In this document: positions 21 to 14,943 of the stretch, piece after piece
Layout of the letters: every line of letters begins with the position of its first letter
Position numbering within the stretch: the first letter of the stretch is position 1
Source of the DNA: Candidatus Heimdallarchaeota archaeon
GTDB taxonomy: Archaea > Asgardarchaeota > Heimdallarchaeia > Hodarchaeales > Hodarchaeaceae
Reading direction: 5' to 3'
NCBI GenBank assembly: GCA_019057635.1
Contig: DXJL01000038.1
Coordinates: 1 to 14,943 of the forward strand
DNA: 14,943 nucleotides
Made by a program: the position numbers and the translations under genes
Notes under the pieces: generated by a model
Databases searched by the model: none
The model's input: only the letters and a program-made list of their open reading frames with translations
Told to the model about the DNA's origin: nothing

Positions 21-932
21 GTGGGAGTAGGCCCATCTGGTGGTATTCTAGGAGCATTTTTATTTCAGAAAGGCATAGAAGTTACTTTAATAGATATTTG
101 GAAGGATCACATTAAGGCAATTCAAAGAAACGGATTAAAAATAACTGGTGTTTCCGATTTAACTGTTAATTTTGATGCGGATCATCTAAAAACATCAATC
201 AAAGACCTTAGGGATACAGCTGTTGACATAGTATTTATCGCTACTAAGACCCCTTTTCTAAAAAGAGTTGTTGATGATTTAAAAGGAGTTATTCCAAACA
301 ATTCTCTAATCGTTAGCCACCAAAATGGGTTACACACAGAAAAGGTTATATCAGACGTATTTGGAGAAGAAAGGACATTTCGTGACGTCATAAATTACGC
401 TGGTAATATGATTGAACCAGGAAAGATAGATATGACCTTTTTTAATCCACCGAATTATGTTGGTGCAAATTCACCAAGTATGAAAGATACAGCTAATGCT
501 ATAGCTGAATTGATGAATTCACCAGATTTTGGTACCACATCTGTTGAAGATATTCAACCTGCTGTTTGGAAAAAAGTAATTTTAAATTCTGCTTTAGCTC
601 CAGTATGTGCAATTACAAGTCAAACAATGAAAGAAGCAATGGACTTTACAGACACAAACAACCTTGCAAGTGAAATAATTAAAGAGGGTATTGCAGTTAC
701 AAACGCCATAGGTATTTCATTTGGTCCGGATTTTCATAAGATTTGTATGGGATATTTATCCAAGGGGGGTCATCATAAGCCTTCAATGTTAATTGATATA
801 GAGAATCAAAATCCAACAGAGATTGATTATCTAAATGGAAAAATTGTGGAATTGGGCAAAAAACATAATATTCCTGTCCCATTCAATGAGGCGACTACCT
901 CTTATGTCCGTGCTTTAGAAACGAAATATTAA
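21..932 (+). CDS. panE: Ketopantoate (2-dehydropantoate 2-) reductase family protein; the true N-terminus probably lies at or before the window edge across a 1-nt frameshift
   Basis: Rossmann motif (AIV)GVGPSGG, then HQNGL, WKKVILN (catalytic Lys region), PSMLID and TEIDYLNG (catalytic Glu region); 303 aa is typical of PanE/ApbA. Confidence 0.85.
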   Translation: MGVGPSGGILGAFLFQKGIEVTLIDIWKDHIKAIQRNGLKITGVSDLTVNFDADHLKTSIKDLRDTAVDIVFIATKTPFLKRVVDDLKGVIPNNSLIVSHQNGLHTEKVISDVFGEERTFRDVINYAGNMIEPGKIDMTFFNPPNYVGANSPSMKDTANAIAELMNSPDFGTTSVEDIQPAVWKKVILNSALAPVCAITSQTMKEAMDFTDTNNLASEIIKEGIAVTNAIGISFGPDFHKICMGYLSKGGHHKPSMLIDIENQNPTEIDYLNGKIVELGKKHNIPVPFNEATTSYVRALETKY

Positions 933-1271: not shown

Positions 1272-3797
1272 TTAAAAAAGATCATCCTCTAGATCTTCAT
1301 TGCCCTCTGGCATTCTCCCGAATTCTTGCATGAATTGTTGTAGTAATTCACTCTCTTTCTTAGTATACATGGGATCTTCCTCGTAACCAAAGTAGCTAGC
1401 TTTTGGGTTACTGATTAACTGCTCTTCTACCGCATATCGTAAATTTTGTGTTCCTTGAATGAGTATAATTTGTTTATTTTCGTCAAGAAGATGAAATGCG
1501 CCTTCGCTTTCAGGAATATTTAGCAAATTCTCTTTCAACAATTCAATCCATTTCTGAGGGGGAAAAGTTACAGATGATATCTGGAGCCTTAGATCACATC
1601 CTAAACATCGTTTTGCTTCTACAACAGCCATCTCTTCATTATAACCTAATTCTATCTCGTCAAAACCTTTTAAACGATCTGAGATTGGTAATTTTGGCAT
1701 TATAACGCGTTTCTTGTCGTAAAAATCGTCATCACGTCCAATCCACGGGTTAGAAGTCATGTCTTTCGTGAGATCTCCATCGATTTCACCAGTACCTCCT
1801 AAGTATTTATCAATTGAACGAGCAGCCTTTCGACCTAATTCAATTGCTTCAACAACAGAAATGGGTCCTTCTGTCACTTCTCCTCCTGCAAACACTCCTG
1901 GAGTGGAAGTTTCTAGTGTACTTTCACTAATTTGGATAAACCCTTCAGGAGAAATGTCTACCTCAACTTCCGTACTTAAAACCGATAAATCGATCTTTTG
2001 ACCGATTGCCATTATTATTATGTCAGTATCAACAGATAGTATCATTGTTTCATCAAAAGTAGGATTAAAATTTCCTTTGGTATCAAAAACACTAGTACAC
2101 TTAATTAACTCGACTCCAGTTACTTTTCCATCTTTTCCAAGTATTTTATTGGGTCCCCATGAACAATTGAGACCGATTCCTTCGTCTAATATTTCTTTAA
2201 TCTCCCATTCGTGAGCTGGCATCTCTTCTCTAGATTCTAAACAGACCACTTGGACTTTGTTTGCCCCTTGGCGAAGAGCAGTTAATGCTACATCCATTGC
2301 AACATTTCCTCCACCTATAACAAGGACATGATCTCCTACCTTAATTTCAGGATTTGAATTAACATCCTTTAGAAATTCTAATCCCCAAAGTACATTATCA
2401 TATTCTATTCCATCTATTCTCAACTTTTTTGCCTGTTGAGCTCCAATTGCTAGAAAAGTTGCCTCATATCCTTGGGATTCCAGATCCGCGAGAGTTAATT
2501 CCTTTCCAATAATCTCTTCAGTTTTTATTTCAATTCCCATGTTCAAAATATGTTCAAGGTCTTTCTGAAGAATTTCTCTTGGTAATCGGTATTTTGGTAT
2601 GCCGAAACTCAACATACCTCCCACATTTGCTTCAGCTTCAAATACCGTTAACGAATGGCCAGCTTTCGCTAAATAATAGGCAGCAGTGAGTCCAGCTGGG
2701 CCAGAACCTACAACTGCGATCTTTTTTCCTTTAGGGGGTATTGAAGTTTTTTGTGATTTCCATGCTCCTGAATCATGTTCTAGGGCAAAACGTTTGAGTG
2801 CACATATAGCAATAGGTTCGTTAATCTGACTCCGACGACAATTCTCCTCACATACATGAAAACAAATCCTTCCAAGCACTGAAGGGAATGGAGTTTTCTC
2901 ACGAATAACTGCCACGGCTTGATCATAATCTCTATTAGCTATATGGCGAATATAACGGGGAACATCCGCTTCTAAAGGGCAATTATCGCGACATGGGACG
3001 AGAGTACTTTCACGTTCAGCCCAAAGAATGTCTTTGTCCGATAATGCTCCTGTCGGACATACTTCTACACAAGCACCACAGAATTTACATCCTGATTCTT
3101 TTAATGTAGGTTTAATGCTCCCTACGATCGTTTCACCATCGGAAAAAACGAAGCCAAGTGCATCTACTCCCCTAACATCCCGACATATTCTTACACATCG
3201 GGTACAACCAATACAAAGCTCATAATTTCGAGTAAATAGAGGTTCATCCTCAAGTACATTAAATTCCTGGGGTATATAACGTGGCGTATCTTCTCTGATT
3301 CCAATGTATTCAGCAACTTTTTGCAATTCGCATCGTCCAAATTCTGGACAACATCGTTCTTCTACTGGAACATTTGTTGAACAAGGTTCACGACTACATC
3401 CTTTCTGTTGAGCACAAGTTAAACAGGCATGACGGTGTTTTGAGAGAATATTCTTCATTTTCTCTCTCCGATAATCTTTGATATCGGAGGTATCAGTCCA
3501 AATCTTCAAATTTTCTTCTGTCATTCTGTTACATGATGTTACTAGCTCTTCTTCTCCTTCTATTTTCACTATACAAAGTTGACACCCCTCATGTTCTTGC
3601 AAGGAATTATCATTTTTGTACTGTACCGTACCTTGGTACACAGATTCTACTGGTTTCATTCCTTGAGCAGATGATAAGTCAGGATGTGTACAAAGTCGTG
3701 GTATATAGATTTCAGAAACTTCTGCTGCTTCCAGTATTGATATTCCCTTTTCTACAGAAAAATCCACACCATTTATCGTGAGATTGACTTTTTCCAT
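1272..3797 (-). CDS. bzdV: BzdV-like NAD(P)H:ferredoxin oxidoreductase: NuoG-like [2Fe-2S]/[4Fe-4S] N-terminus, GltD/NfnB-like FAD/NAD(P) domain, C-terminal GIY-YIG-like domain
   Basis: IPRLC...GCQLC...TSC [2Fe-2S]; CIGCTRCVRIC and CKFCGACVEVCP 2x[4Fe-4S]; PCRDNCP/GRICFHVCEENC GltD clusters; GSGPAG FAD and GGGNVAMD NAD(P) motifs; EAKRCLGC; lies directly after bzdNOPQM. Confidence 0.85.
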   Translation of the reverse strand: MEKVNLTINGVDFSVEKGISILEAAEVSEIYIPRLCTHPDLSSAQGMKPVESVYQGTVQYKNDNSLQEHEGCQLCIVKIEGEEELVTSCNRMTEENLKIWTDTSDIKDYRREKMKNILSKHRHACLTCAQQKGCSREPCSTNVPVEERCCPEFGRCELQKVAEYIGIREDTPRYIPQEFNVLEDEPLFTRNYELCIGCTRCVRICRDVRGVDALGFVFSDGETIVGSIKPTLKESGCKFCGACVEVCPTGALSDKDILWAERESTLVPCRDNCPLEADVPRYIRHIANRDYDQAVAVIREKTPFPSVLGRICFHVCEENCRRSQINEPIAICALKRFALEHDSGAWKSQKTSIPPKGKKIAVVGSGPAGLTAAYYLAKAGHSLTVFEAEANVGGMLSFGIPKYRLPREILQKDLEHILNMGIEIKTEEIIGKELTLADLESQGYEATFLAIGAQQAKKLRIDGIEYDNVLWGLEFLKDVNSNPEIKVGDHVLVIGGGNVAMDVALTALRQGANKVQVVCLESREEMPAHEWEIKEILDEGIGLNCSWGPNKILGKDGKVTGVELIKCTSVFDTKGNFNPTFDETMILSVDTDIIIMAIGQKIDLSVLSTEVEVDISPEGFIQISESTLETSTPGVFAGGEVTEGPISVVEAIELGRKAARSIDKYLGGTGEIDGDLTKDMTSNPWIGRDDDFYDKKRVIMPKLPISDRLKGFDEIELGYNEEMAVVEAKRCLGCDLRLQISSVTFPPQKWIELLKENLLNIPESEGAFHLLDENKQIILIQGTQNLRYAVEEQLISNPKASYFGYEEDPMYTKKESELLQQFMQEFGRMPEGNEDLEDDLF

Positions 3798-3875: not shown

Positions 3876-4163
3876 TTACCATGAATGGGAAATAGCACCA
3901 GGTTCACAGCTTTGAACACAAGGCAGATTTATTGGTCCAGTAGTAGGTTTACAAGGGGCACAGGAATATTTAATTTTCTTTCGATGTTCATCAGTGACTC
4001 TTGCGACAAGTTCCTCTGCTAGAGGATCTAATTCGTTTTCAACTACCTCTAAAACTTTTTCAGGACAGGCTTCAACGCATCTAGTACACCCATCGCAGAG
4101 TTCGGTATCGATAGTAATATAAAATTCTCCTGAACCATCTTTATAGCCATAATTTGCTTTCAT
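3876..4163 (-). CDS. bzdM: 2x[4Fe-4S] ferredoxin, BzdM type (electron donor to benzoyl-CoA reductase)
   Basis: ANYGYKDGSGEFYITIDTE N-terminus, CDGCTRCVEACP and CAPC-x10-CVQSCEP, ending AISHSW; directly downstream of bzdQ. Confidence 0.85.
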   Translation of the reverse strand: MKANYGYKDGSGEFYITIDTELCDGCTRCVEACPEKVLEVVENELDPLAEELVARVTDEHRKKIKYSCAPCKPTTGPINLPCVQSCEPGAISHSW

Positions 4164-4202: not shown

Positions 4203-5081
4203 CTACTTTTTACTCGCCTTTTCGACCAAAGCTTTCCCAAATAAGGCACCACCAATTGCGCCTGCAAGTTGTGGATCAATACTCGGTTCTGGAGCTGTCA
4301 CTTTCAACTCCTTCTCAATTCGTGAAACGACACCAATATTCTTAGCAATTCCTCCAGTAATAGCAAAATCATCTTCTACACCAAGTCGTTCAAGAAGGGT
4401 TACTACACGATGTGCCATCGCTCCACAATAAGCAGCTAAGACATTATCTTTAGACCATCCTTTTCGCAATAAAGCTACCGCTTCAGATTTGGCAAAAACA
4501 ACACAAGTGCTACTCACTGGTTCTGGTTCTTCATCTACTAGTGACATCTGACCTACTTCATTAATATGTACCTGAAGAAGATCTGCAAACACTTCCATCC
4601 CTCTTCCAGTCCCCGCAGCACATTTATCATTCATTAGAAATGCAGTAACCTTACCACGGTGGTCACATCGTATTGCTTTACAATCTTGACCTCCCATGTC
4701 TAATACTGTACGGATAGTTGGTCCGTACATAAAGTTAGCACCACGTGCATGACACGCTATCTCCGTAATGGCTCTTTTTGCGAAAGGAACATTTACACGG
4801 CCATATCCAGTTCCGACAGCGTATTCTATGTTATCTAAGGGGAGTTCTGTACCATCTAATGCCCATTTCATTGACTTATTTGCGCTATCAGGACTATCAC
4901 TTCCAGTTCTCATATTGGCATAGCAATAAATTTCTCCATCCACCATTACAACTGATTGAGTACTAACTGACCCTACATCTACCCCAGCGGAAATTATCTC
5001 TCCATTTTTCCAATCTAGATCTGGATTGGTCCAACGTGATTCAGTCCATCTCCAATATTCTTTACTTTCTGAATTAGCCAA
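4203..5081 (-). CDS. bzdQ: Benzoyl-CoA reductase, Bzd type, ATP-binding activase subunit Q (alpha)
   Basis: ASKHA ATPase motifs GVDVGSVSTQ, TGYGR, DMGGQDCK, NDKCAAGTGRG, STCVVFAKSE; Trp-rich N-terminus (EYWRWTESRW); TTG start with GGAGG RBS inside the end of bzdP. Confidence 0.92.
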   Translation of the reverse strand: MANSESKEYWRWTESRWTNPDLDWKNGEIISAGVDVGSVSTQSVVMVDGEIYCYANMRTGSDSPDSANKSMKWALDGTELPLDNIEYAVGTGYGRVNVPFAKRAITEIACHARGANFMYGPTIRTVLDMGGQDCKAIRCDHRGKVTAFLMNDKCAAGTGRGMEVFADLLQVHINEVGQMSLVDEEPEPVSSTCVVFAKSEAVALLRKGWSKDNVLAAYCGAMAHRVVTLLERLGVEDDFAITGGIAKNIGVVSRIEKELKVTAPEPSIDPQLAGAIGGALFGKALVEKASKK

Positions 5082-5086
5082 TTATT

Positions 5087-5875
5087 TTATCCTCCATTCA
5101 TCGTATCTTGAGCTACGAGAGCAGCTCCATAAGCTGAAATAAATTCTGGCACAATTGGATCCTTAGGAATTAAAAGATCGAATCCTAGGTTTCGTTTCAT
5201 TGAATCAACAAACCCTATGTTGTTTGCTACACCTCCAACTAGAGCTACGTCTTTCTCAATCCCCACTCTACGAGTCATGCTAGTGATCCGATCAGCGATC
5301 GCATCATGAACTGCTCTTATAATATCTTCTCTCGGAGTATTTTGGTGAATTAAGGACACTACTTCTGATTCTGCGAAGATTGTACATTGTGCATTCATGG
5401 GTACTGCCTTTGTGGACTTTAAAGACATTTCTCCCATCTTTTCTAACTCTACTTCCAAAGCTCTCGCCATAGCTTCGGTGAATGCGCCCGCGCCAGCAGC
5501 ACATTTCTCATTTATTCCAAAATCAATTATTTTTCCGTTCTCATTTAAGCGAATTGCCCTTCCTTCTTCTGCACCTATATCGATCACAGTACGTACGGAA
5601 GGAAAAACTTTCGAGATTCCACGTGCACTTGCACTGATTTCAGTAACTGTATCGTTTGCAAAAGTAATAGCATCCATTCCAGCTCCTGTTGCAGTAATGT
5701 GTTTAATGTCCTCTCGAGTTATTTTAGCTTTATTCAATGCTTCATTTACTGCTTCTTCAGCAGAAGATTGTTGGTCAAACCCACTCAGAACCGAGGAGGT
5801 TGCAAGAATTTCACTACTCCTTAGAATCACTACTTTCGTATTTTTTGCTCCTAAATCAATTCCAATTACTGTCAT
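5087..5875 (-). CDS. bzdP: Benzoyl-CoA reductase, Bzd type, ATP-binding activase subunit P (delta)
   Basis: GIDLGAKNTK, IDIGAEEGR, NEKCAAGAGAF, NAQCTIFAESEVVS; 262 aa; GGTGA RBS; between bzdO and bzdQ. Confidence 0.9.
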   Translation of the reverse strand: MTVIGIDLGAKNTKVVILRSSEILATSSVLSGFDQQSSAEEAVNEALNKAKITREDIKHITATGAGMDAITFANDTVTEISASARGISKVFPSVRTVIDIGAEEGRAIRLNENGKIIDFGINEKCAAGAGAFTEAMARALEVELEKMGEMSLKSTKAVPMNAQCTIFAESEVVSLIHQNTPREDIIRAVHDAIADRITSMTRRVGIEKDVALVGGVANNIGFVDSMKRNLGFDLLIPKDPIVPEFISAYGAALVAQDTMNGG

Positions 5876-5890
5876 AAGAATTCACCATAT

Positions 5891-7207
5891 TTAATCTACT
5901 AACTTCTTCATTCCAAGGCTTTCCATGAATGCATCTATCCGAACCATTGTTCTTGTAAGATCGAATTCTCTTTCATCCCCCATATTCCCTTCAAATGGCA
6001 TTACTGGAAACCCAGCTTTCTGAATAGCCAAGCGATTTTCTGCAATTCCAAGGCTTAACCCTTCACAACCCCTATTAAAGTGCAAAAGAACTCCGTCAAG
6101 CTTCCATTCCCGTGCAATCCGAATCATCATTTCAGATTTCAATTGTGGGTGATAGAAATGCTGCCATTCAGGTTTACTTAAATTCCACTTTGCAAGAGCT
6201 CGTAAGGCTTCATCGCGATTTGTAATCTCAATTTCAGGAATAGCTTTTGGACCCCATGTCCCATCTTCCTTATCTTCCCACAATCCAATGAGTGAGAAAG
6301 TATAAAGACTTCCTATTGATACACAACCATATTTCTCCATATACCGGAAAACTTTAAGGAATGCCCATGGAGGTTGGGTATCGGTCATAATACGACATTG
6401 TTCGTTTTCTACAGCAGCAATTCCTCGTTCTACACGACTTTTAACTTCAGGATATAGCTCTTTCTCGTAGAAATCGGCAGTCCACTGTGAAGATTTTCTT
6501 AATGTACCTAGAACGTATAAAGCATACATTGTTTTTTCATCTAACGGTGCAGGTATTGTTTTATTAAGCTCACAAATAGCTGCCCAGTAATGACAACTCC
6601 GAAATTCGTTGTGAACTGCTTTGATGAGGAGTTCATCATCGTAGTCTCTACCAGTTTGTTTTTTGAGCCATTTTATTCCATCATGCATTTGTCCTACAAT
6701 ATAATTGATTCTACTTTCGGTTAGTTCTTCATAAGGGCCCACTGATACATCAATGCTAAACATGGGAATCCCTCCTTCAAGATCACTAGCAACCTGATAC
6801 CATTTAGCATGTGAGCAACATATGTGATCTTGCCACATAAAATCAGGCTTTGGAAATTCCTTTGAGAATTGTGGCCAGGCGTATTTGTTTAGAATAATCG
6901 ATCCCCAATAATTTCGCATATATGAACATAGATCTCTTGCATATCCTTTGGTTTCAATAGCTTCTTGACATTCTAAAGCTAATTCTTTATTAAAAGCAAC
7001 AGTTGCGCCATAAGGCTCCCCTGTTAAGCACCATACATCTTCACCCAATCCGGAAGGAATAGCATCGAAAGACCAAGCCCCTCCAGCCCAGCGTATTCCA
7101 CCCTTATCATGGGCTTCTGCGAAGTCTCTATAATAATTCTCACGTAGAGTCTTCGCTTTTCCCCAGCTTTTCAATCTCTCAAATGGGTATTTTGCTTTAC
7201 TCATCAT
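5891..7207 (-). CDS. bzdO: Benzoyl-CoA reductase, Bzd type, subunit O (beta; 2-hydroxyacyl-CoA dehydratase/HgdD fold)
   Basis: [70 protein letters not shown]; GGAGG RBS overlapping the bzdN stop. Confidence 0.93.
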
Positions 7208-7215
7208 ATTTCCTC

Positions 7216-8367
7216 CTAAAATAAATCCTCCTCTCGTAATATTTCAAGAAATGCCTCGACGCGGGTTTTGAATTGACCAATTGGTACAGTAACATCAAAC
7301 TCAAGGAATAAAGTTGCAATTCCCTTATCTTCTAGTTTTTCTTTTATTGCGGGTGTATCCAATTCGTGTGGATCACAAAATTTCTGTTGAATTAAAATTG
7401 CGCCTTGTACATCATATTCTTTTGTTAGTTGTAAAATGTGATCAAGTCTAGTACGATTTGGCCAATCTTTGCTTGGACATGGCACACGTTTCACATATCG
7501 TTCTGCTATTGCGCTCATTAAATCTCTAGATGAACCTACTTCCTTTTGGAAATAGCGGGTACCTGTACAATGATCATCAGTTACAAAAGTTGCTCCTAGC
7601 GATTCAACCATTTTCATAAACTCTGTATCGTCATCTTCAGACCCTATGATAATTAGCCTTTCCCCAGGATCACCTATATCGCGTGAAGGTAGCTTTTGAA
7701 GAAGTAACTCCAACTCACGGTTATGTTCTTCCTTATCTATCATTTGACTTGATACTACCATATACATTGCTTCTAATCCTGTAAGAGGTGGGTTGGGTTC
7801 TTTTCTAAGCTCATACACTTGGTTCATCAAGCGTCGATTTTTGTTCATTAGTTCAATACCACTTTTTAAGTCCTTATCAGTGATAAGATGACCAATCCAT
7901 TTTTCTAGAGATTTTTTGAATTGAATCAACTCTTCTTTTAGGTAAGGAATAGCATGAGGACTCTGGACATGCATTGGATGAGGTAAATAGTAACTATAAT
8001 CTGTGGGAATATGGAGATCCCAGCTTGTATATGCCTGTCTAATGTGAAGACAGCTTTGAGCAATCATGATTCCATCTAGATAGTCAAAACGGCCTTTCAA
8101 TCCCTGTGCAAGGCAATCACGACAAAATGGACAGAACATCGCGAAAATGTGTGGTTCTGTAACATCCTGTGGTTCATGACTTCCTAAAATACGGACTGGA
8201 AGTATATTTGCGGCATAAAGAATCTCTTCGGGTACGTAGGTACAGAAATATCCTATCACCTTTCCCCCAGTGCGTTCTTTCCAAGCCTTTGCATACTCAT
8301 GGCGATTTTCGTACCAATCCTTGAATTGGTTGAAGGTTAAATTTTCTTCTTCTTGTACAAGTTGCAT
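7216..8367 (-). CDS. bzdN: Benzoyl-CoA reductase, Bzd type, subunit N (gamma)
   Basis: [67 protein letters not shown]; AGGTG RBS upstream. Confidence 0.93.
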
Positions 8368-8444: not shown

Positions 8445-8894
8445 TCATAATTCCTTCATTAAAGTAATGTAGTCGCTTTTGGTCATTCCAAGTGTATGAA
8501 AAAATTCAAGTAAATCACTGGATGTCCACTCGACTGTTGTGTGAACAACTTTTATCCCTCGTGATTTGAAATCTTCTAGAAGCTTCTCTCCAAGTTTTTT
8601 TCCTACTCCCTTAGCAGTGTGCTTTGGATCAACTCCAAGAATCTCGATCCATCCTCCGTTTTCGATACCAAATAGCCAAGGATGGATTGTTCCAATCATA
8701 AATCCTATTACCTGCTCCTGAATTTCAGCAACAAGACCAATACTGTTGTTTTTAAGATAATGTTGGATTTCACTTTTCCACATTTCAGGTCGGGATATCC
8801 CTGAAATGAGCTCATCAAGTGAGGCAATTGAAGCGATGTCTGATTCTTTCAATTTCCTAATAGTGATTTCTTCCCATGGGTTCATAATAATCAT
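8445..8894 (-). CDS. GNAT-family acetyltransferase-fold protein (start uncertain)
   Basis: ITIRKLKESD first strand, LVAE..VIGF, WIEILGVDPKHTAKGVGKKL acyl-CoA pyrophosphate loop, LLEFFHTLG motif B. Confidence 0.85.
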   Translation of the reverse strand: MIIMNPWEEITIRKLKESDIASIASLDELISGISRPEMWKSEIQHYLKNNSIGLVAEIQEQVIGFMIGTIHPWLFGIENGGWIEILGVDPKHTAKGVGKKLGEKLLEDFKSRGIKVVHTTVEWTSSDLLEFFHTLGMTKSDYITLMKEL

Positions 8895-8936: not shown

Positions 8937-9167
8937 TCATTTTCTCTTCGAAACACGTATAATTTTGACTGTAGATCCAATCCAATTCTTTGGTAAATAG
9001 ACACGGCCCGTATTTCCACTTTGTTTCACCTCACGTTCAATCATTTCAAATCCAGTAACTTTCAATTCTGATGGTAGCTCTTCTACTGGCTCAACCACAT
9101 CATTCACCACTTTTATTATACGTTTCGGTCGTTTGTCAGGAACGTTTATTATATAGGAACCCTCCAA
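8937..9167 (-). CDS. DUF2080-like small protein (AbrB/swapped-hairpin-like putative DNA-binding protein)
   Basis: EMIEREVKQSGNTGRVYLPKNWIGSTVKIIRV matches the DUF2080 pattern (V+xxGNSxxVxLPxxWxGxxV+II); first gene of the operon; TTG start just downstream of a TATA-like box. Confidence 0.75.
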   Translation of the reverse strand: MEGSYIINVPDKRPKRIIKVVNDVVEPVEELPSELKVTGFEMIEREVKQSGNTGRVYLPKNWIGSTVKIIRVSKRK

Positions 9168-9195
9168 GATCTTTTTATTCTTTAGTTGGTATTAC

Positions 9196-9203
9196 TATAT
9201 ATA
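9196..9203 (-). promoter_or_regulatory. Putative archaeal TATA box for the DUF2080-GNAT-bzd operon (near-leaderless transcript)
   Basis: TATATATA lying 29-36 nt upstream of the TTG at 9167; no Shine-Dalgarno sequence before that start. Confidence 0.5.
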
Positions 9204-9240
9204 TGCCTTGTGGCTGCTAAGAGTTCACTATGTGATAATA

Positions 9241-9247
9241 TTATAAA
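9241..9247 (+). promoter_or_regulatory. Possible TATA box for the moaD-AOR operon
   Basis: TTATAAA in the divergent intergenic region, about 95 nt upstream of the ATG at 9340; the region is AT-rich, so specificity is low. Confidence 0.3.
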
Positions 9248-9339
9248 CTCATAATCAATGGACCCAAAAAAATATAGTTGGGAAAAATTGAAGAATACTA
9301 AACATAGGTTTAATGATTGTTTGATCGAGACTGAGAATT

Positions 9340-9624
9340 ATGATGAAAGAGAGTATTGAAATCATCTTTACTGCAACTTTCAGAGAAATCACAAAAAAGA
9401 GGAAAATCATTGAAGAAATTAATGAGGATTGTACTTTTGAAAGAATTTTAACACGTTTAGTGAAAAAGTACGGTAATGATTTTAACAACGTAATTAACTC
9501 TCAAACAGGTAAAATTTCTAGCGATATTCTTATAATGTTGAATGGAAAAGGAATCAGAGATATTGATGAGAAAATTAAAGATAAAGATGTTTTGATATTC
9601 AGTCTTCCTGTAGGTGGCGGTTAA
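9340..9624 (+). CDS. moaD: MoaD/ThiS/SAMP ubiquitin-like sulfur carrier
   Basis: Beta-grasp pattern (IIFTATFREIT...ILIMLNGKGI...KDKDVLIFSLPVGGG) with C-terminal diglycine; adjacent to an AOR-family gene, a common context. Confidence 0.88.
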   Translation: MMKESIEIIFTATFREITKKRKIIEEINEDCTFERILTRLVKKYGNDFNNVINSQTGKISSDILIMLNGKGIRDIDEKIKDKDVLIFSLPVGGG

Positions 9625-9639
9625 ACAGGTGTTGTTACA

Positions 9640-9786
9640 ATGAATGAAGTCAGATGTTTAAATTGTTTGAAACGCTTTCAAGTTCAACTAAATAGTGAAA
9701 AAGCTGAATGCCCTCAATGTAATACTCAATATAGAATATCTTGGCCAAAGCCAGATCAACCAAAGATTCGTGGTTTAGCAAAATAA
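9640..9786 (+). CDS. 48-aa zinc-ribbon microprotein (CxxC-x14-CxxC), absent from the ORF track
   Basis: Manual translation: MNEVRCLNCLKRFQVQLNSEKAECPQCNTQYRISWPKPDQPKIRGLAK*; AGGTG RBS at 9626-9631; fills the moaD-AOR gap (15 bp and 19 bp spacers). Confidence 0.8.
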   Translation: MNEVRCLNCLKRFQVQLNSEKAECPQCNTQYRISWPKPDQPKIRGLAK

Positions 9787-9805
9787 ATCGTTAAAGGTTT
9801 TTACT

Positions 9806-11698
9806 ATGGTTTGGAATAGGAAAATCGCGCATATTAATCTAACCTCTGGGAAGGTACAGACTAAAAAAATCTCTAAATCCCTTCGGAAACAATTCCTAGG
9901 AGGGAGAGGGCTTAATATGTACTACCTATATCAATACATTAAACCTGGAATTGACCCTTTAGGCCCTGAAAATGCTTTATTTATAGGAACTGGCATACTT
10001 ACTGGAATTCCAGCTCTCGGTGCTGGGAGATGTGACATTGCAGCAAAGTCACCTTTGACTGGTGCAGTTGGTGATTCTAATATTGGAGGTTTTTTTGCTC
10101 CTGAATTGAGATTTGCAGGTTTTGATCATTTGATGGTAACTGGGAAAGCTGAAAAACCAAGTTATATTTGGATCCATGATGGAGAAGTAACAATTCAAGA
10201 TGCAACCCATTTATGGGGGAAAGATACCTTTGAAACTCAAGATCAAATCCGTTCCGACCACAATGATGAACAGATAAAGAGTTTAGTAATAGGTAAGGCA
10301 GGAGAAAACCTTGTTAGATATGCGAATGTAAGGACTGGTATGAAAAACGCAGCTGGCAGAACAGGGATGGGATGCGTTATGGGCTCAAAGAATTTGAAAG
10401 CAATCGCTACACGAGGAACATTGGATGTAGAGTTTGCCTATCCTGACAAATTACTAGATTATTGTTCAGAAATGAATAATCAAATCACAGGATCACGATG
10501 GGCAAGCGCCCAATCAAAATGGGGAACACTCATAATTTATAGTAATACAAATACTACTGGATTAATTAGAACACGAAATTTCCAGCTAAATCTTCTCGAG
10601 GATGGTGAAAATTTAGAGCCTGAAGTAATGGACGAATATACAATTGGAATGTCTGGCTGTTATGGATGTAGTGTCCATTGTCGTCATCGATATGTACTAA
10701 AAGATGGCCCGTATGCCCCTCTTTTTGGTGAAGGTCCAGAATACACCTCTCTTGGAGCATTTGGTACCATGGTTGGCTGTAAAAAAATGGAAACCGTTCT
10801 AGTTGGTAATCATCTTGTGAATAAGTATGGTATTGATACACTAGAAGTTGGTGGGATCATAGCTTGGGTTATGGAGCTTAATGAGAAAGGTTTACTTTCA
10901 GAAAAATTAACCGATGGCTTAAATCTTGAATGGGGGAATGAAGAGGCTGTTTTTGAGCTCATCAAAAGAATCAGTAAAAGAGAGGGTGATTTAGGGAACA
11001 TACTTGCTGATGGTTTTCTACCAGCAATAGCAAAAATAGGGAAGGAATCAGAGTATTATGCCATGCAAATTAAAGGCATGAGTAATTTACATTCCGATGA
11101 ACGTCCTACACCAAGTTTAGCATTGGGTATCGCAACTTCCACACGAGGTGCGGAGCACTTGAGAAGTCGTCCCGCCATAGATCTTTATGGACTTCCAGAA
11201 GAACTCTTGGAAGAGATTTATGGGGCACCAATGTCTTCAGATTATACTTCATATGAGGGAAAAAGCCGTATGGTCTGGTGGCAGGAACTTTTATATGCAG
11301 TCACAGATTCAATTGGTATATGTAAATTTCAGACTGTTTTTTGTGCTGTACATGCCCCCAAATTCGAAGAATTTTCTAAACTTATTGAGTATACTTCTGC
11401 TCTAAAGATTTCAAAACCTGAGCTTATGGAAATCGGCGAAAGGATAATAACAACAGAGCGAATGTTTAACAATCGCGAAGGATTTTCCAGAAAAGACGAT
11501 AAGCTACCTGAAAGATTCTTTAAAGAACCAACAACCTTAGGACTTCCTATAATCAAAGGAAAGAAGATTGAGAAAGGAAGATTCAATACTATGATTGATG
11601 AATACTATTCCCTCCATGGATGGGATAATAATGGAGTTCCTTCTGAAGAAACGCTTAAGAGGCTTGGATTAGAAAATAAATATTCAATGAATAGCTAG
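9806..11698 (+). CDS. aor: Tungsten-dependent aldehyde:ferredoxin oxidoreductase (AOR/WOR) family catalytic subunit with non-canonical active-site residues
   Basis: FLGGRG, AKSPLTG..GDSNIGG, AAGRTGMGCVMGSKNLKAI, CYGCSVHC plus GICKF [4Fe-4S] ligands, GIDT, RGAEHL, DDKLPERF, EYYSLHGWD..GVP; 630 aa. Confidence 0.92.
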   Translation: MVWNRKIAHINLTSGKVQTKKISKSLRKQFLGGRGLNMYYLYQYIKPGIDPLGPENALFIGTGILTGIPALGAGRCDIAAKSPLTGAVGDSNIGGFFAPELRFAGFDHLMVTGKAEKPSYIWIHDGEVTIQDATHLWGKDTFETQDQIRSDHNDEQIKSLVIGKAGENLVRYANVRTGMKNAAGRTGMGCVMGSKNLKAIATRGTLDVEFAYPDKLLDYCSEMNNQITGSRWASAQSKWGTLIIYSNTNTTGLIRTRNFQLNLLEDGENLEPEVMDEYTIGMSGCYGCSVHCRHRYVLKDGPYAPLFGEGPEYTSLGAFGTMVGCKKMETVLVGNHLVNKYGIDTLEVGGIIAWVMELNEKGLLSEKLTDGLNLEWGNEEAVFELIKRISKREGDLGNILADGFLPAIAKIGKESEYYAMQIKGMSNLHSDERPTPSLALGIATSTRGAEHLRSRPAIDLYGLPEELLEEIYGAPMSSDYTSYEGKSRMVWWQELLYAVTDSIGICKFQTVFCAVHAPKFEEFSKLIEYTSALKISKPELMEIGERIITTERMFNNREGFSRKDDKLPERFFKEPTTLGLPIIKGKKIEKGRFNTMIDEYYSLHGWDNNGVPSEETLKRLGLENKYSMNS

Positions 11699-11699
11699 A

Positions 11700-12200
11700 A
11701 TGGAGAATTTCAGGATGCAGAAATTTTTATTTATAAACCCGGAAAAATGTTCTGGGTGTCGGATTTGTGAAACAGTTTGCTCCCTTCACCACGAAAAAGT
11801 TTGTAATCCAACTTATGCACGAATTCAAGTGATCAAATGGGAAAGTTCAGGTTTATACATACCCATGGTTTGTCAGCAGTGTGAAGATCCAATTTGTGAA
11901 ACTGTTTGTCCAATGGGGGCAGTATTTAAGGATGAAAATACTGGAGCTATTCTGATTGACTATGATCTATGTGTCGGGTGTAAACTTTGTGTTACACATT
12001 GTCCCTTTGGTGGAGTTGTTATAGGTAAAGACGGAAAAATTAAGAAGTGTGATCTTTGTGATGGAGATCCGTTATGTGTTAAGAATTGCGAACCGAAAGC
12101 TCTTCAGTACATTGAGGGAACCACAATTAATTTTCATAAACGCAAAGCTGCCGCTCAAAGATTTTCTGAATTAATGCAAAAATTGTTAGCAGCGACTTAA
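11700..12200 (+). CDS. 4x[4Fe-4S] electron-transfer subunit (DmsB/HycB-like; small subunit of the AOR); alternative start ATG at 11715
   Basis: 16 Cys in CSGCRICETVC, CQQCEDPICETVCP, CVGCKLCVTHCP and CDLCDGDPLCVKNC; begins 1 bp after the AOR stop; GGAG at 11702-11705 favours the ATG at 11715. Confidence 0.9.
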   Translation: MENFRMQKFLFINPEKCSGCRICETVCSLHHEKVCNPTYARIQVIKWESSGLYIPMVCQQCEDPICETVCPMGAVFKDENTGAILIDYDLCVGCKLCVTHCPFGGVVIGKDGKIKKCDLCDGDPLCVKNCEPKALQYIEGTTINFHKRKAAAQRFSELMQKLLAAT

Positions 12201-12202
12201 TA

Positions 12203-13744
12203 TTACTCATGAGTCTTTTTCAATGCAGATCCGACGATTTCTGTAATATCACTAACTTTTATTGGTATCGATTTTCTTTTTGCAGTAATACGAAAGTTCA
12301 TTTGACAAAGAGGACATGCTGTTGTCAACATATCTATATTTAAAGGTGAAAAGTCATCATATAATCTATTAGAAGCAATATCCATACTTATCTGATAATT
12401 AAAATTCCATAATCCGCCCCCTCCGCCACAACATCGTGCTTGAGATCTATTGAACATCATTTCGGTTAGTTGAAGATTTGGTATCATTTTCAAGATTTTA
12501 CGAGGTGCATGATAGACACCACTGTGTCTACCAAGAGAACATGGATCGTGGTACGTGATTTTTGCATTTAAGGGATTAAACTTCAATTTCTTCTTTTTAA
12601 TTTCGTTTTCGATATATTGTGTTGAGTGAAAAACTTTACACGGCAGATCAAGATTGAATATCTCTGGAAAAAGCTTCGTGAAGGTGTAAAAACATCCTGC
12701 ACAGGGAGTAATTACCGTGTTAACCCCTGTTTTTTCAATTTTTTGAATAATTTCCTTTGCAATTATTTTTGCTTCATTCCACAGACCTGATGAAAACAAA
12801 ACATACCCACAACATCCTTCATCTTCCCCTAGCGTTGTAAAGTTAGCTTGAACCGCTTTTAAAATATTATAAAATGCTATGGCGGTTTTAGGAGTACGAC
12901 TTGATACCATACATCCAACCCAATAAAGAATGTCTGGTTTTTCTGAGAAGTTTCTATCAGAGATATCATTTAACCATGCGAAGCGTTTTTCATGTGGAGT
13001 TGCGGCTGGGTCTCCAGTTTTTGATATGTTTGAAGAGGTTGTATAAAATATGCTAGGAGCTAAATTTTTTTCTGCAATCATATTCCTTGTATGAACAATT
13101 GCTTTGTGAAAGTCTGAATGCTTAAAACACTCGCTAAAACAGTTACCGCACTCACTACAAGTATATAAAACATCAATAATTTTTTTTGAAATTTCTAATT
13201 CTCCTTTAAGTAATCCTCTAATCAATAGCATCCTCCCCTTAGCCGACCATGTTTCAACTCCGTCATAAGAACGAGTAATTGTACAATAACTACCAATGGT
13301 GTTATTAAATAAGCATTTAGTTAAGCTACTCTCTGAAAACAATGTCTGTATTGCTGATGTAATGTTATTTTGGACACTATGCGGATTTTTCTGTATCTTA
13401 CGTATAATTAATTCCTTGATATTGGTTGGTTTCTCTGATAAGCGACTAATTTCAGGGATTTTTGTATTATCTAGCAATATAGAGATTTTTGAAGGATTAC
13501 TTAATGGGAATGAATCTGGTGTACTTTTTCTGATTATTTCGACATTTTTTTCTTTCTCCCAATTTAATAATATAGTAGAAATTTCAGATTCATTATCCCT
13601 TACCACAATGTCAAACATTGGATGAATTGATCTTGTATAAATGTTTTCAAAAGAGTAAACATATCGATCTTCAATATCCGTCAGAACTTGAATCTTTGGA
13701 GATAAGCTGCTGAATTCTTTAACAATTTCGCTTACAGATTTCAT
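12203..13744 (-). CDS. HdrD/GlcF-like Fe-S oxidoreductase with two CCG domains, a degenerate first ferredoxin motif and a vestigial GlcD-like N-terminus
   Basis: CSECGNCFSEC; YWVGC...GCCG...TPCAGC; YHDPCSLGR...CCGGGGG...TACPLC; ETWSAKGRMLL is typical of GlcF-like proteins. Confidence 0.82.
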   Translation of the reverse strand: MKSVSEIVKEFSSLSPKIQVLTDIEDRYVYSFENIYTRSIHPMFDIVVRDNESEISTILLNWEKEKNVEIIRKSTPDSFPLSNPSKISILLDNTKIPEISRLSEKPTNIKELIIRKIQKNPHSVQNNITSAIQTLFSESSLTKCLFNNTIGSYCTITRSYDGVETWSAKGRMLLIRGLLKGELEISKKIIDVLYTCSECGNCFSECFKHSDFHKAIVHTRNMIAEKNLAPSIFYTTSSNISKTGDPAATPHEKRFAWLNDISDRNFSEKPDILYWVGCMVSSRTPKTAIAFYNILKAVQANFTTLGEDEGCCGYVLFSSGLWNEAKIIAKEIIQKIEKTGVNTVITPCAGCFYTFTKLFPEIFNLDLPCKVFHSTQYIENEIKKKKLKFNPLNAKITYHDPCSLGRHSGVYHAPRKILKMIPNLQLTEMMFNRSQARCCGGGGGLWNFNYQISMDIASNRLYDDFSPLNIDMLTTACPLCQMNFRITAKRKSIPIKVSDITEIVGSALKKTHE

Positions 13745-14025: not shown

Positions 14026-14790
14026 TTGAGTGATGAATTAATTTTAGTCGAAAAAAGAGATTCTATTGGGAAAATAATCTTTAACAACGGCCCATTAAAT
14101 ATTTTAAATATTGACATGATGAAACAGATCAATAAGACGCTTGATGATTTCCTAGAAGACAATTCTCTCAAAGCGATAGTGTTTGATCACTTTGGAAAAG
14201 CATTCTCTGCAGGAGTCGATGTCGGGGAACACGTGGGGGATACTGCTAAAAAAATGTTAGAAGTATTCCATGGAATGTTTAAAAGGTTAAATCATATGAA
14301 AATACCTACAGTCGCTTGTGTAAAGGGAGCTGCATATGGTGGGGGATGTGAGGTAGCTGCTTTCTGTGATATTGTATTAGCTTCAGAGAAAGCGAAATTT
14401 GGTAATCCAGAAATAAAAGTGGGGGTCTTTCCTCCCGTGTCAGCGGTCATATTTCCTTCTATACTTGGAGAGAAAAAAGCATTTGAACTTATATTACAAG
14501 GAGAGATTATAGATGCGGAAGAAGCACACAGAATAGGCCTTGTCAATCAAGTATTCTCCTTAGAATCTTATGAGCAAGATGTATCTACATTTCTTGAAAG
14601 ATTTAACAAATTAAGTGCTATTGTATTGCAATATTCTAAAAAGGCCATTAAATTAGGAATATCTGACTTTGAGACCAAGTTAGACGAAGTAGAAACTCTT
14701 TATCTCAAAGAACTTATGGCAACAACTGATGCGAATGAGGGTTTACAAGCTTTTATTGAGAAACGTTCGCCTCAATGGCAGAATCGATAA
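14026..14790 (+). CDS. dch: Crotonase-family hydratase, most likely cyclohexa-1,5-diene-1-carbonyl-CoA hydratase (Dch/BzdW/BamR type)
   Basis: PLNILNIDMMKQIN, AFSAGVDVGEH, GAAYGGGCEVA, KFGNPEIKVGVFPP (both catalytic Glu present), DANEGLQAFIEKRSPQW; AGGTGA RBS with TTG start; benzoyl-CoA reductase context. Confidence 0.75.
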   Translation: MSDELILVEKRDSIGKIIFNNGPLNILNIDMMKQINKTLDDFLEDNSLKAIVFDHFGKAFSAGVDVGEHVGDTAKKMLEVFHGMFKRLNHMKIPTVACVKGAAYGGGCEVAAFCDIVLASEKAKFGNPEIKVGVFPPVSAVIFPSILGEKKAFELILQGEIIDAEEAHRIGLVNQVFSLESYEQDVSTFLERFNKLSAIVLQYSKKAIKLGISDFETKLDEVETLYLKELMATTDANEGLQAFIEKRSPQWQNR

Positions 14791-14857
14791 TTATCACTAA
14801 TTTGAGAGATTAGGGAATTTAAACCGAATAATTATAAGAATACGGGAAGAAATTAAT

Positions 14858-14943
14858 ATGAGAGCTGCTGTTTTTGAAGAAGTAAAATCACCATTAATAA
14901 TCAAGGATGATTATCCTAGTCCGAAAATCAATGAATTACAAGG
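14858..14943 (+). CDS. 5' fragment of a Zn-dependent medium-chain dehydrogenase, by context probably 6-hydroxycyclohex-1-ene-1-carbonyl-CoA dehydrogenase (Had/BzdX); truncated by the window end
   Basis: Manual translation MRAAVFEEVKSPLIIKDDYPSPKINELQ resembles the MDR N-terminus (MKAAV....PL.I...P.P); follows dch. Confidence 0.6.
   Translation, partial: MRAAVFEEVKSPLIIKDDYPSPKINELQ

Follow-up and report, generated by a model that had tools for sequence, protein, structure and literature searches.

The window analyzed here is the whole of contig DXJL01000038.1 (14,943 nt) from Candidatus Heimdallarchaeota archaeon, one of 214 contigs in a 3.19-Mb assembly (GCA_019057635.1). Its proteins are matched most closely by entries named Hodarchaeales or Heimdallarchaeota, both Asgard archaea. 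At its center of interest is a plus-strand module of four genes that encodes a member of the aldehyde:ferredoxin oxidoreductase/tungsten-containing oxidoreductase (AOR/WOR) family. The first gene encodes a MoaD/ThiS-fold protein (9340..9624; 94 amino acids, with a C-terminal Gly-Gly-Gly, ...VGGG), and the second a zinc-ribbon protein (9640..9786; 48 amino acids, four Cys arranged as CxxC...CxxC). They are followed by the catalytic subunit, here called WorL (9806..11698; 630 amino acids, AFOR_N and AFOR_C domains), and a polyferredoxin, WorS (11700..12200; 166 amino acids, Fer4_11 and related families in Pfam). Analysis of the open reading frames (ORFs) bears out the tight operon put forward in the original prediction, an earlier note on this DNA, with gaps of 15, 19, and 1 nt. 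A fifth gene, overlooked in that prediction, is convergent on WorS, with 2 nt separating the two ORF ends. It encodes a conserved, soluble EtfD/HdrD-like Fe-S protein, called the CCG protein below (12203..13744, minus strand; 513 amino acids, Pfam CCG 6.6e-31), and is counted in the system because the second of the two gene orders described below places it amid the accessory genes of the WOR. The best explanation of the four genes and the CCG protein is a predicted ferredoxin-linked tungsten oxidoreductase system that is an accessory of archaeal islands for Bzd-type benzoyl-CoA reductase (BCR).

Such an island surrounds the module. The minus-strand operon that diverges from it, 1.4 kb from WorL, contains bzdN (7216-8367; NCBIfam equivalog 499 bits, cut-off 454), bzdO (5891-7207; 684 bits, cut-off 449), bzdP, which encodes the second BcrAD ATPase (5087-5875; CoA_E_activ 218 bits), and bzdQ (4203-5081; 414 bits, cut-off 380). 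Genes for a BzdM-like ferredoxin (3876-4163; 95 amino acids) and a BzdV-like Fe-S flavoprotein (1272-3797; 841 amino acids), both assigned with Pfam, complete the series. With N, O, and Q above their equivalog cut-offs, the minus-strand neighbors are by profile match a true class I Bzd-type BCR, and the divergence from bzdNOPQ-M-V that had been claimed earlier is confirmed. The further claim that the module lies between bzd and dch/had also holds, with corrections. A gene for a Dch-like enoyl-CoA hydratase (14026..14790, plus strand; TIGR03189 188 bits, under the cut-off of 292.5) is indeed found downstream, but GNAT, DUF2080, and CCG genes intervene and had is off the window. Neither a Had-like nor an Oah gene occurs within the window; the assembly has both on contig C41, which begins with 438 nt that match the end of the window (14506-14943) at 99.1%. 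C41 (1-13483) carries genes for a Had-like dehydrogenase (222 bits, under its cut-off), thiolases, an SDR, an acyl-CoA dehydrogenase, a true Oah (570 bits, cut-off 464), a 3-hydroxyacyl-CoA dehydrogenase, and a CoA ligase. Because the module is flanked by bzd and the Dch-like gene, and the overlap with C41 continues the island, it is placed inside a benzoyl-CoA degradation island.

To compare the neighborhood, 64 loci were taken from species-representative genomes, with enzymes 65-93% identical to WorL, and searched with the proteins of the window and of a second locus, L046. They are labeled Hod-, Promethe-/Loki-, Hermod-, Thor-, Odin-, and Heimdallarchaeota and Bathyarchaeia. WorS is near WorL in 62 of the 64 loci, both misses being cut by a contig end, and the zinc-ribbon gene in 59, with four of the five misses cut in the same way. 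A CCG protein is found in 54 loci, a ThiS-family gene in 52, and an ApbA-family reductase in 42. True Bzd subunits are near WorL in 12 loci, with all four subunits in nine; a distant BcrAD-type ATPase is present in 36 and a lone HGD-D subunit in 31. Two gene orders were observed. The order of the window is that of Hodarchaeales and several Bathyarchaeia, and the Loki-type order reads HGD-D, MaoC, ThiS (minus), CCG (plus), zinc-ribbon (minus), WorL, WorS, ApbA, and ATPase, with the ApbA gene co-directional with WorS. Overall, a BCR- or HAD-family gene lies within 10 kb of WorL in 50 of the 64 loci. No such gene was found in four Bathyarchaeia loci with full 10-kb flanks; a true BzdO is encoded elsewhere in three of these four genomes and in one Loki-type genome tested (4/5 in all).

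The association extends to whole genomes. Among 400 Asgard genomes, WorL was found in 57 and BzdO in 57; 41 have both, 16 only WorL, 16 only BzdO, and 327 neither, which places BzdO in 41/57 WorL-positive and 16/343 WorL-negative genomes. Among 301 Bathyarchaeia genomes, WorL (counted at ≥68% identity) is present in 8 and BzdO in 10, with both in 8, WorL alone in none, BzdO alone in 2, and neither in 291, that is, BzdO in 8/8 WorL-positive genomes and 2/293 others. BzdO was counted above its cut-off, and all of these are raw genome counts that ignore kinship. The 41 Asgard genomes with both genes carry them on one contig in 26 cases, far apart in 2 complete genomes, and on separate contigs in 13; the one-contig pairs are within 5 kb in 10 (the genus of the window) and at 10.7-27.6 kb in 16 (family f20). 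The genomic link between WorL and class I BCR is strong, and WorL is co-inherited with Bzd-type BCR or related ATP-driven enzymes. Synteny and co-occurrence in two phyla thus support the coupling to class I BCR that the original prediction proposed. Occurrence mostly outside aromatic clusters, which it had named as the contrary outcome, is not what the loci and genomes display. Bzd-type BCR and related ATP-driven enzymes require low-potential ferredoxin, and we infer that the module exchanges electrons with this ferredoxin pool.

WorL itself has both AOR domains, AFOR_N (PF02730; 5e-79) and AFOR_C (PF01314; 6e-116), and its matches in the PDB are led by P. furiosus AOR (1aor, 360 bits), 9mqx_D (355), AorB (8c0z_A, 322), and FOR (311), with BamB (4z3w, 234) and WOR5 (227) lower. 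No NCBIfam equivalog cut-off was reached in the profile search. The active site was mapped by a HMMER alignment to 1aor, with Glu313 and Tyr427 in P. furiosus numbering, and followed through 120 close homologues (72-100% identity). The Cys ligands of the [4Fe-4S] cluster (C285, C288, C292, and C506) are invariant in 120/120. Thr243, Glu313, Tyr427, and His448 form the conserved second shell of aldehyde-oxidizing members according to a 2025 review (PMC12096430; papers cited by PMC number are represented here by parts of their text). Two of these residues are kept: the equivalent of Thr243 is T241 (118 Thr and 2 Ser in the 120), and that of His448 is H451 in 120/120. Glu312 and Tyr313 of WorL are also in place, corresponding to Glu311 and Tyr312 of P. 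furiosus AOR.

A tentative reading, to which we give somewhat less than an even chance, is that WorL performs a modified aldehyde oxidation and feeds ferredoxin to BCR. The aromatic pathway would supply an aldehyde-type substrate, such as benzaldehyde or an arylacetaldehyde released when the side chains of aromatic acids are shortened, and WorL would oxidize it at low potential, removing two electrons. In place of Glu313 and Tyr427, the altered residues Thr314, His429/Ser430, and His451 would serve in acid-base catalysis. Electrons would pass from the WorL cluster through the four clusters of WorS to a ferredoxin (BzdM), and from there to ATP-driven BCR or to the related dehydratase-type enzymes of the Loki-type loci. 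The stoichiometry would match, each aldehyde yielding two electrons and each ring reduction consuming two. The zinc-ribbon protein would be a small subunit or regulator, and the CCG protein a second electron port. This reading is favored by WorL being nearer to the AORs than to BamB (360 versus 234 bits) and by WorS being nearest to AorA-type subunits. The retained equivalents of Thr243, Glu311, Tyr312, and His448, the setting in a bzd island, and the synteny and co-occurrence with BzdO count in its favor as well.

Several observations weigh against aldehyde oxidation. The position of Glu313 is Thr (Thr314) and that of Tyr427 is Ser (Ser430) in 120/120 close homologues, although the alignment of Tyr427 with Ser430 can move by one residue in a fast MAFFT run. 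The position preceding Ser430 is His429 in 119/120. Glu is found at the Glu313 position in 5/5 solved chains that align over this stretch, and 9mqx_D and 8c0z_A retain both Glu and Tyr in the alignment. The review describes Glu313, Tyr427, and His448 as universally conserved in known AORs, and BamB and YdhV, which are not aldehyde oxidizers, as lacking the second-shell residues (PMC12096430). An aldehyde-forming enzyme (lyase or decarboxylase) was not identified in the island, and a ferredoxin and an Nfn-like BzdV are already encoded within the bzd operon itself. In the Loki-type loci the zinc-ribbon gene is on the strand opposite to WorL, which is odd for a stoichiometric subunit. The premise of simple aldehyde oxidation in the original prediction, then, is not supported for a clade in which the Glu313 and Tyr427 positions are substituted throughout, while its label WOR is apt. 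By these comparisons WorL is an AOR/WOR-family enzyme (W-bis-pterin and one [4Fe-4S] cluster) of an unstudied type and not a standard AOR. Its chemistry may be new, since the residue kept by every known aldehyde-oxidizing relative is missing, and it appears to be tied to ring reduction.

The clade is also well delimited. When 1.84 billion cluster representatives were searched, identity to WorL was at least 72% within the clade and then fell to 56%, 49%, and 46% or below. In a FastTree of 117 rows, a quick tree from a fast alignment, the clade belongs to a 29-row branch (SH-like support 99) in which no member has the Glu. The canonical AOR paralogues of the genome fall outside this Glu-less branch; among the nine PF01314 matches in the genome, the seven other paralogues that cover the site have Glu in six and Gln in one. 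A sister group, sampled at 10 metagenome loci (50-58% identity), shares the motifs GPEYTS and SNLHSDER with the clade and has the order zinc-ribbon, WorL homologue, WorS in 8/9 evaluable loci; its enzyme is present in one of the two BzdO-only Bathyarchaeia genomes. Two of the four annotated sister-group loci, L076 and L078, look bacterial because IclR regulators are present. Neither the sister group nor the type represented by metagenome contig L092 has a CCG gene. In the tight, CCG-partnered clade, Cys76 (GRCD) and Cys325 (MV[D/G]CKKME) of WorL are invariant in 120/120 members; both are variable in the sister group.

Some further members of the Glu-less branch are found beside bzd genes. On L092 (346-16927), one strand encodes GNAT, bzdNOPQ, bzdM, bzdV, an MBL-fold hydrolase, a WorL homologue (45% identity), and WorS, followed by an NADH-oxidase-like flavoprotein, ApbA, a CoA ligase, a lone HGD-D, and an ATPase; zinc-ribbon and CCG genes were not found on this contig. 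In Asgard family f12, BzdO is present in 10/19 genomes and WorL in none, and in 5/5 genomes tested bzdO has another member of the branch at a distance of 6-18 kb, with 65-66% identity to the L092 enzyme. The BzdO matches of six f12 genomes (G098, G104, G108, G109, G111, and G112) contain one in-frame stop each, TAG in five and TAA in one. At L085 (584-10204), a branch member of 43% identity has a NuoE-like gene and a NuoF-GltD fusion as neighbors, and a CCG protein is encoded nearby, a part list that resembles those of bifurcating (Bam- or Class IV-like) WORs.

An ordinary role should be considered at this point, in which WorL is a broad-range aldehyde:ferredoxin oxidoreductase of amino-acid fermentation and its proximity to bzd reflects an inherited or transferred island with no shared task. 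The nine PF01314 matches in the genome are consistent with this, as is the treatment of AORs as generic peptide-fermentation enzymes in published Asgard reconstructions (PMC8163825). The identity of WorL between Asgard and Bathyarchaeia (70-75%) would fit block transfer, and WorL and bzdO are far apart in the two complete genomes. We consider it improbable: the active site is not generic, the BCR link persists in both phyla, under either gene order, and in a second clade of the enzyme, and among the other AOR paralogues of this genome none has a zinc-ribbon gene nearby and only one a WorS-like neighbor. The comparison of identities between the two groups has a second aspect, as BzdO and BzdN are only 57-65% identical where WorL is 70-75%; the gap suggests either transfer of the module or an unusually strong constraint on it.

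WorS has 16 Cys that are invariant in 41 sequences, enough for four [4Fe-4S] clusters, and its PDB matches are 9mqx_E (132 bits), 8c0z_C (AorA, 132), WOR5-S (101), and BamC (47). The pair fits the Class II WOR scheme of WorL and WorS (PMC13328260), with a 1-nt gap and no FAD/NAD gene in the plus-strand operon; Pfam likewise revealed no FAD/NAD third subunit of Class III (AorABC) type in that operon. The 48-amino-acid protein gives only sub-threshold Pfam zinc-ribbon matches, and a search of the ESM Atlas matched only unnamed clusters. An alignment of 54 sequences nevertheless has a mean column identity of 71%, with C6, C9, C24, C27, R5, and W35 invariant and a conserved C-terminal tail, YRISWP..QPKIRGLAK. 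The protein is predicted to be either a small subunit or a regulator.

The CCG protein consists of an N-terminal α/β domain, a 4Fe-4S dicluster, and two CCG domains. Its AF2 model has a pLDDT of 82 and includes the N-terminal domain as a small α/β fold. The best Foldseek match is M. smegmatis EtfD (9ojn; E 1.7e-18, 408 columns), followed by LutA and HdrB. The membrane (quinone-side) part of EtfD is missing, and the sequence match covers only EtfD residues 406-716. Full-length orthologues (43-75% identity) occur in 54/400 Asgard genomes, comprising 50/57 WorL-positive and 4/343 WorL-negative genomes. CCG paralogues without the N-terminal domain (33-37% identity) are widespread, also where WorL is absent.

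The similarity to EtfD raises the possibility that the system runs as an electron sink, with the CCG protein taking electrons from ETF and acyl-CoA dehydrogenase and passing them via WorS to WorL, which would reduce a substrate. Besides mycobacterial EtfD being the best structural match, genes for EtfAB and an acyl-CoA dehydrogenase are 3-7 kb away in L046, an acyl-CoA dehydrogenase is encoded on C41, and an ACAD homologue is near WorL in 22/64 loci. ETF electrons are, however, far too positive for the reduction of an acid, the known reverse reaction of AOR, and no acceptor can be named. The CCG protein lacks the membrane part of EtfD, and its paralogues are widespread without WorL. We therefore hold a sink of this kind to be decidedly improbable, more so than the fermentation enzyme considered above.

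Returning to WorL as an oxidoreductase serving BCR, the altered active site and the CCG partner could point to a different chemistry. WorL may be a non-aldehyde tungsten enzyme that acts on an aromatic or alicyclic CoA thioester and forms, with WorS and the CCG protein, a triad like BamB-BamC-BamD; it might, for example, remove a ring hydroxyl reductively or carry out some other reduction at low potential. Glu313 and Tyr427 are lost across the clade, Glu is absent from the entire 29-row branch, and the only two characterized clades without these residues oxidize no aldehydes, as far as the available parts of two papers go (PMC12096430; PMC13328260). The CCG orthologue tracks WorL (50/57 versus 4/343 genomes), BamD is described as Hdr-like (PMC13328260), and all neighbors of the module handle CoA esters. 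Several observations nevertheless run against this. WorL is closer to the AORs, and WorS has four clusters like AorA and not three like BamC. The tungsten ligand of BamB, Cys322, is shared with Cys336 of YdhV (PMC12096430), and in E. coli YdhV, used as a stand-in for BamB, the metal-binding Cys336 is located within a 17-residue insertion that has no counterpart in WorL; the residue comparison to BamB is by this proxy only, as a short-region PDB search returned only AOR-type chains. A CCG gene is absent in the sister group and the L092 type, and the core pathway of BCR, Dch, Had, and Oah is complete without WorL.

Dehydroxylation, furthermore, could be covered by four XDH-family enzymes in the genome. 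A vacant niche for the reduction of 4-hydroxybenzoyl-CoA was considered as the place of WorL and not retained: the four XDH-family matches (385-518 bits, under the cut-off of 994.55; a fifth match, a 31-bit fragment, is left out of the count) mean that the niche is not shown to be empty. A 2-hydroxyacid oxidoreductase like that of Proteus, which one paper mentions (PMC6365974), was likewise weighed, since 2-hydroxyacid enzymes frequently have ApbA and CCG proteins as companions, but was not adopted; the 2025 review contains nothing about it. On balance, thioester chemistry is a serious if doubtful possibility, only slightly less probable than ferredoxin-linked oxidation of an aldehyde-type substrate, which remains our preferred, though tentative, reading.

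The first gene of the module had been labeled SAMP in the original prediction. As a rival explanation, a ubiquitin-like SAMP would be conjugated to proteins and the operon would be a modification system. The beta-grasp ThiS family and a C-terminal Gly-Gly would suit a SAMP, features that are common to MoaD, and in L046 the module is preceded, at 2-5 kb, by two JAB/MPN genes. The score against the NCBIfam SAMP1 equivalog is only 34 bits (cut-off 60), compared with 24.5 bits for Pfam ThiS (PF02597; cut-off 22.5) and a borderline 49.4 against 49.5 for moaD_arch (TIGR01687). An E1-type or JAB gene was not found in the window with Pfam, and a JAB homologue is near the module in 1/64 loci. The genome encodes six ThiS-family genes, four of them beside pterin enzymes: besides this one, there are three on contigs C101, C208, and C133, of which two adjoin AOR paralogues and one is 67 nt away from an XDH-family gene. 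The MoaD-like proteins encoded by aorD and aorE of Aromatoleum are absent from the purified enzyme and thought to act in cofactor maturation (PMC6365974). Since MoaD-like genes adjoin other pterin enzymes both here and in Aromatoleum, cofactor maturation is likelier than conjugation. The first gene is probably, by this analogy, a MoaD for maturation of the tungsten cofactor; SAMP is not the most fitting label, and a protein-modification operon is very improbable indeed. Each pterin enzyme seems to own a MoaD-like gene. The two large JAB/MPN-domain genes upstream of the Loki-type module of L046 (2582-5440) are probably unrelated, a homologue having been found in 1/64 loci.

As a whole, the predicted system can be set beside several known enzymes. 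One is AorAB(C)DE of Aromatoleum aromaticum EbN1 (8c0z; PMC6365974), in which a similar W subunit (322 bits) is responsible for catalysis, accompanied by a small subunit with four clusters (132) and by MoaD-like genes, and which oxidizes aromatic aldehydes in an anaerobe that degrades aromatics (PMC6365974). In contrast, the module of the window has no FAD/NAD subunit, the equivalents of Glu313 and Tyr427 are replaced, a zinc-ribbon gene and the CCG partner are added, and it is archaeal and tied to BCR. P. furiosus AOR is the best match of WorL and shares with it both domains, the cluster Cys, and the equivalents of Thr243 and His448; it is, however, homodimeric, has no small subunit, and retains Glu313 and Tyr427. 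Class II WORs such as P. furiosus WOR5/ASOR (6x6u; PMC13328260) also have two subunits, with four clusters in WorS, and are expected to use ferredoxin as carrier, but WOR5 matches WorL with 227 bits only and keeps the Glu.

BamBCD of Geobacter metallireducens (4z3w) also acts in a pathway for aromatic rings and likewise pairs its W subunit with a polyferredoxin and an Hdr-like CCG protein, and in both BamB and WorL the standard AOR second shell is incomplete. The match of BamB to WorL is 234 bits only, and BamC (47 bits) has three clusters whereas WorS has 16 Cys. The module also lacks HdrA-like and NuoEF-like genes and has a class I BCR alongside. Chains D and E of 9mqx ("Aldehyde:ferredoxin oxidoreductase" and "Fe-S-cluster-containing hydrogenase subunit") are the second-best match of WorL (355 bits) and, at 132 bits, the best of WorS; 9mqx keeps Glu and Tyr, and no bifurcating HydABC-type genes adjoin the module.

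An earlier description of a link between WOR and BCR was not found in the literature searched. The paper on Hermodarchaeota describes bzd clusters and, in the parts available, AORs only as generic fermentation enzymes (PMC8163825), and the main text of the WOR classification paper contains no mention of HdrD, heterodisulfide, Asgard, Bathyarchae, or zinc (PMC13328260). That paper lists a defined physiological role for only 5/92 WOR clades. As judged from gene content and synteny, the WorL clade has a clear genomic assignment to anaerobic benzoyl-CoA degradation.

Asgard archaea are the closest known relatives of eukaryotes, and the clade spans two abundant groups of sediment archaea, Asgard and Bathyarchaeia. 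The altered active site, together with the zinc-ribbon and EtfD/HdrD-like partners, makes it a target for finding new tungsten chemistry; alternatively, the payoff would be a new route of low-potential electrons to ATP-dependent ring reduction. It is a serious if doubtful possibility that WorL, WorS, the CCG protein, and the zinc-ribbon protein carry out a non-aldehyde low-potential reaction on an aromatic or ring-derived CoA thioester that serves ATP-driven BCR in both groups. Performed by a BamBCD-like triad, such chemistry would give the AOR family a third function besides aldehyde oxidation and the ring reduction by BamB. WorL together with bzdO is also a marker of aromatic-degrading archaea in metagenomes.

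The remaining features of the window belong mainly to the minus-strand operon. The BzdV-like protein (1272-3797) combines an Nfn/GltD-type flavoprotein with fused 2Fe-2S and NuoG-like Fe-S domains, and its best PDB matches are Nfn/GltD-type modules (9bov, 9n5u, and 5jca). It was considered as an AorC-like third subunit of the module, an assignment that is unsupported, as no AorC chain was matched at E ≤ 1e-10 in the PDB search. Adjoining bzdV is a gene for an 89-amino-acid protein (970-1239) with no family match, which is kept in Hodarchaeales; several Loki-type loci encode a homologue ∼9 kb upstream of the module. An ApbA/PanE-family reductase (21..932, plus strand; Pfam ApbA and ApbA_C) is encoded at the start of the window. 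The GNAT acetyltransferase (8445..8894, minus strand; Pfam Acetyltransf_1 3e-11) lies between DUF2080 and bzdN, a position that is kept in Hodarchaeales loci.

The first gene of the minus-strand operon encodes the small DUF2080 (AbrB-like) protein (8937..9167; NF033496 66.8 bits, cut-off 22), and this position is also kept across Hodarchaeales loci. It is separated from the module by a divergent intergenic region of 172 nt (9168..9339). In an alignment of six Hodarchaeales loci, this spacer contains an invariant TATA-like block, GT.TTACTATATATAT, and an invariant TTGTGGC. A further element, CACTATGTGATA, is part of a short TCAC..GTGA inverted repeat and is kept in five of the six loci, its ACTAT part differing in L015. 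The spacer may represent a putative promoter with an operator, perhaps for the DUF2080/AbrB-like protein.

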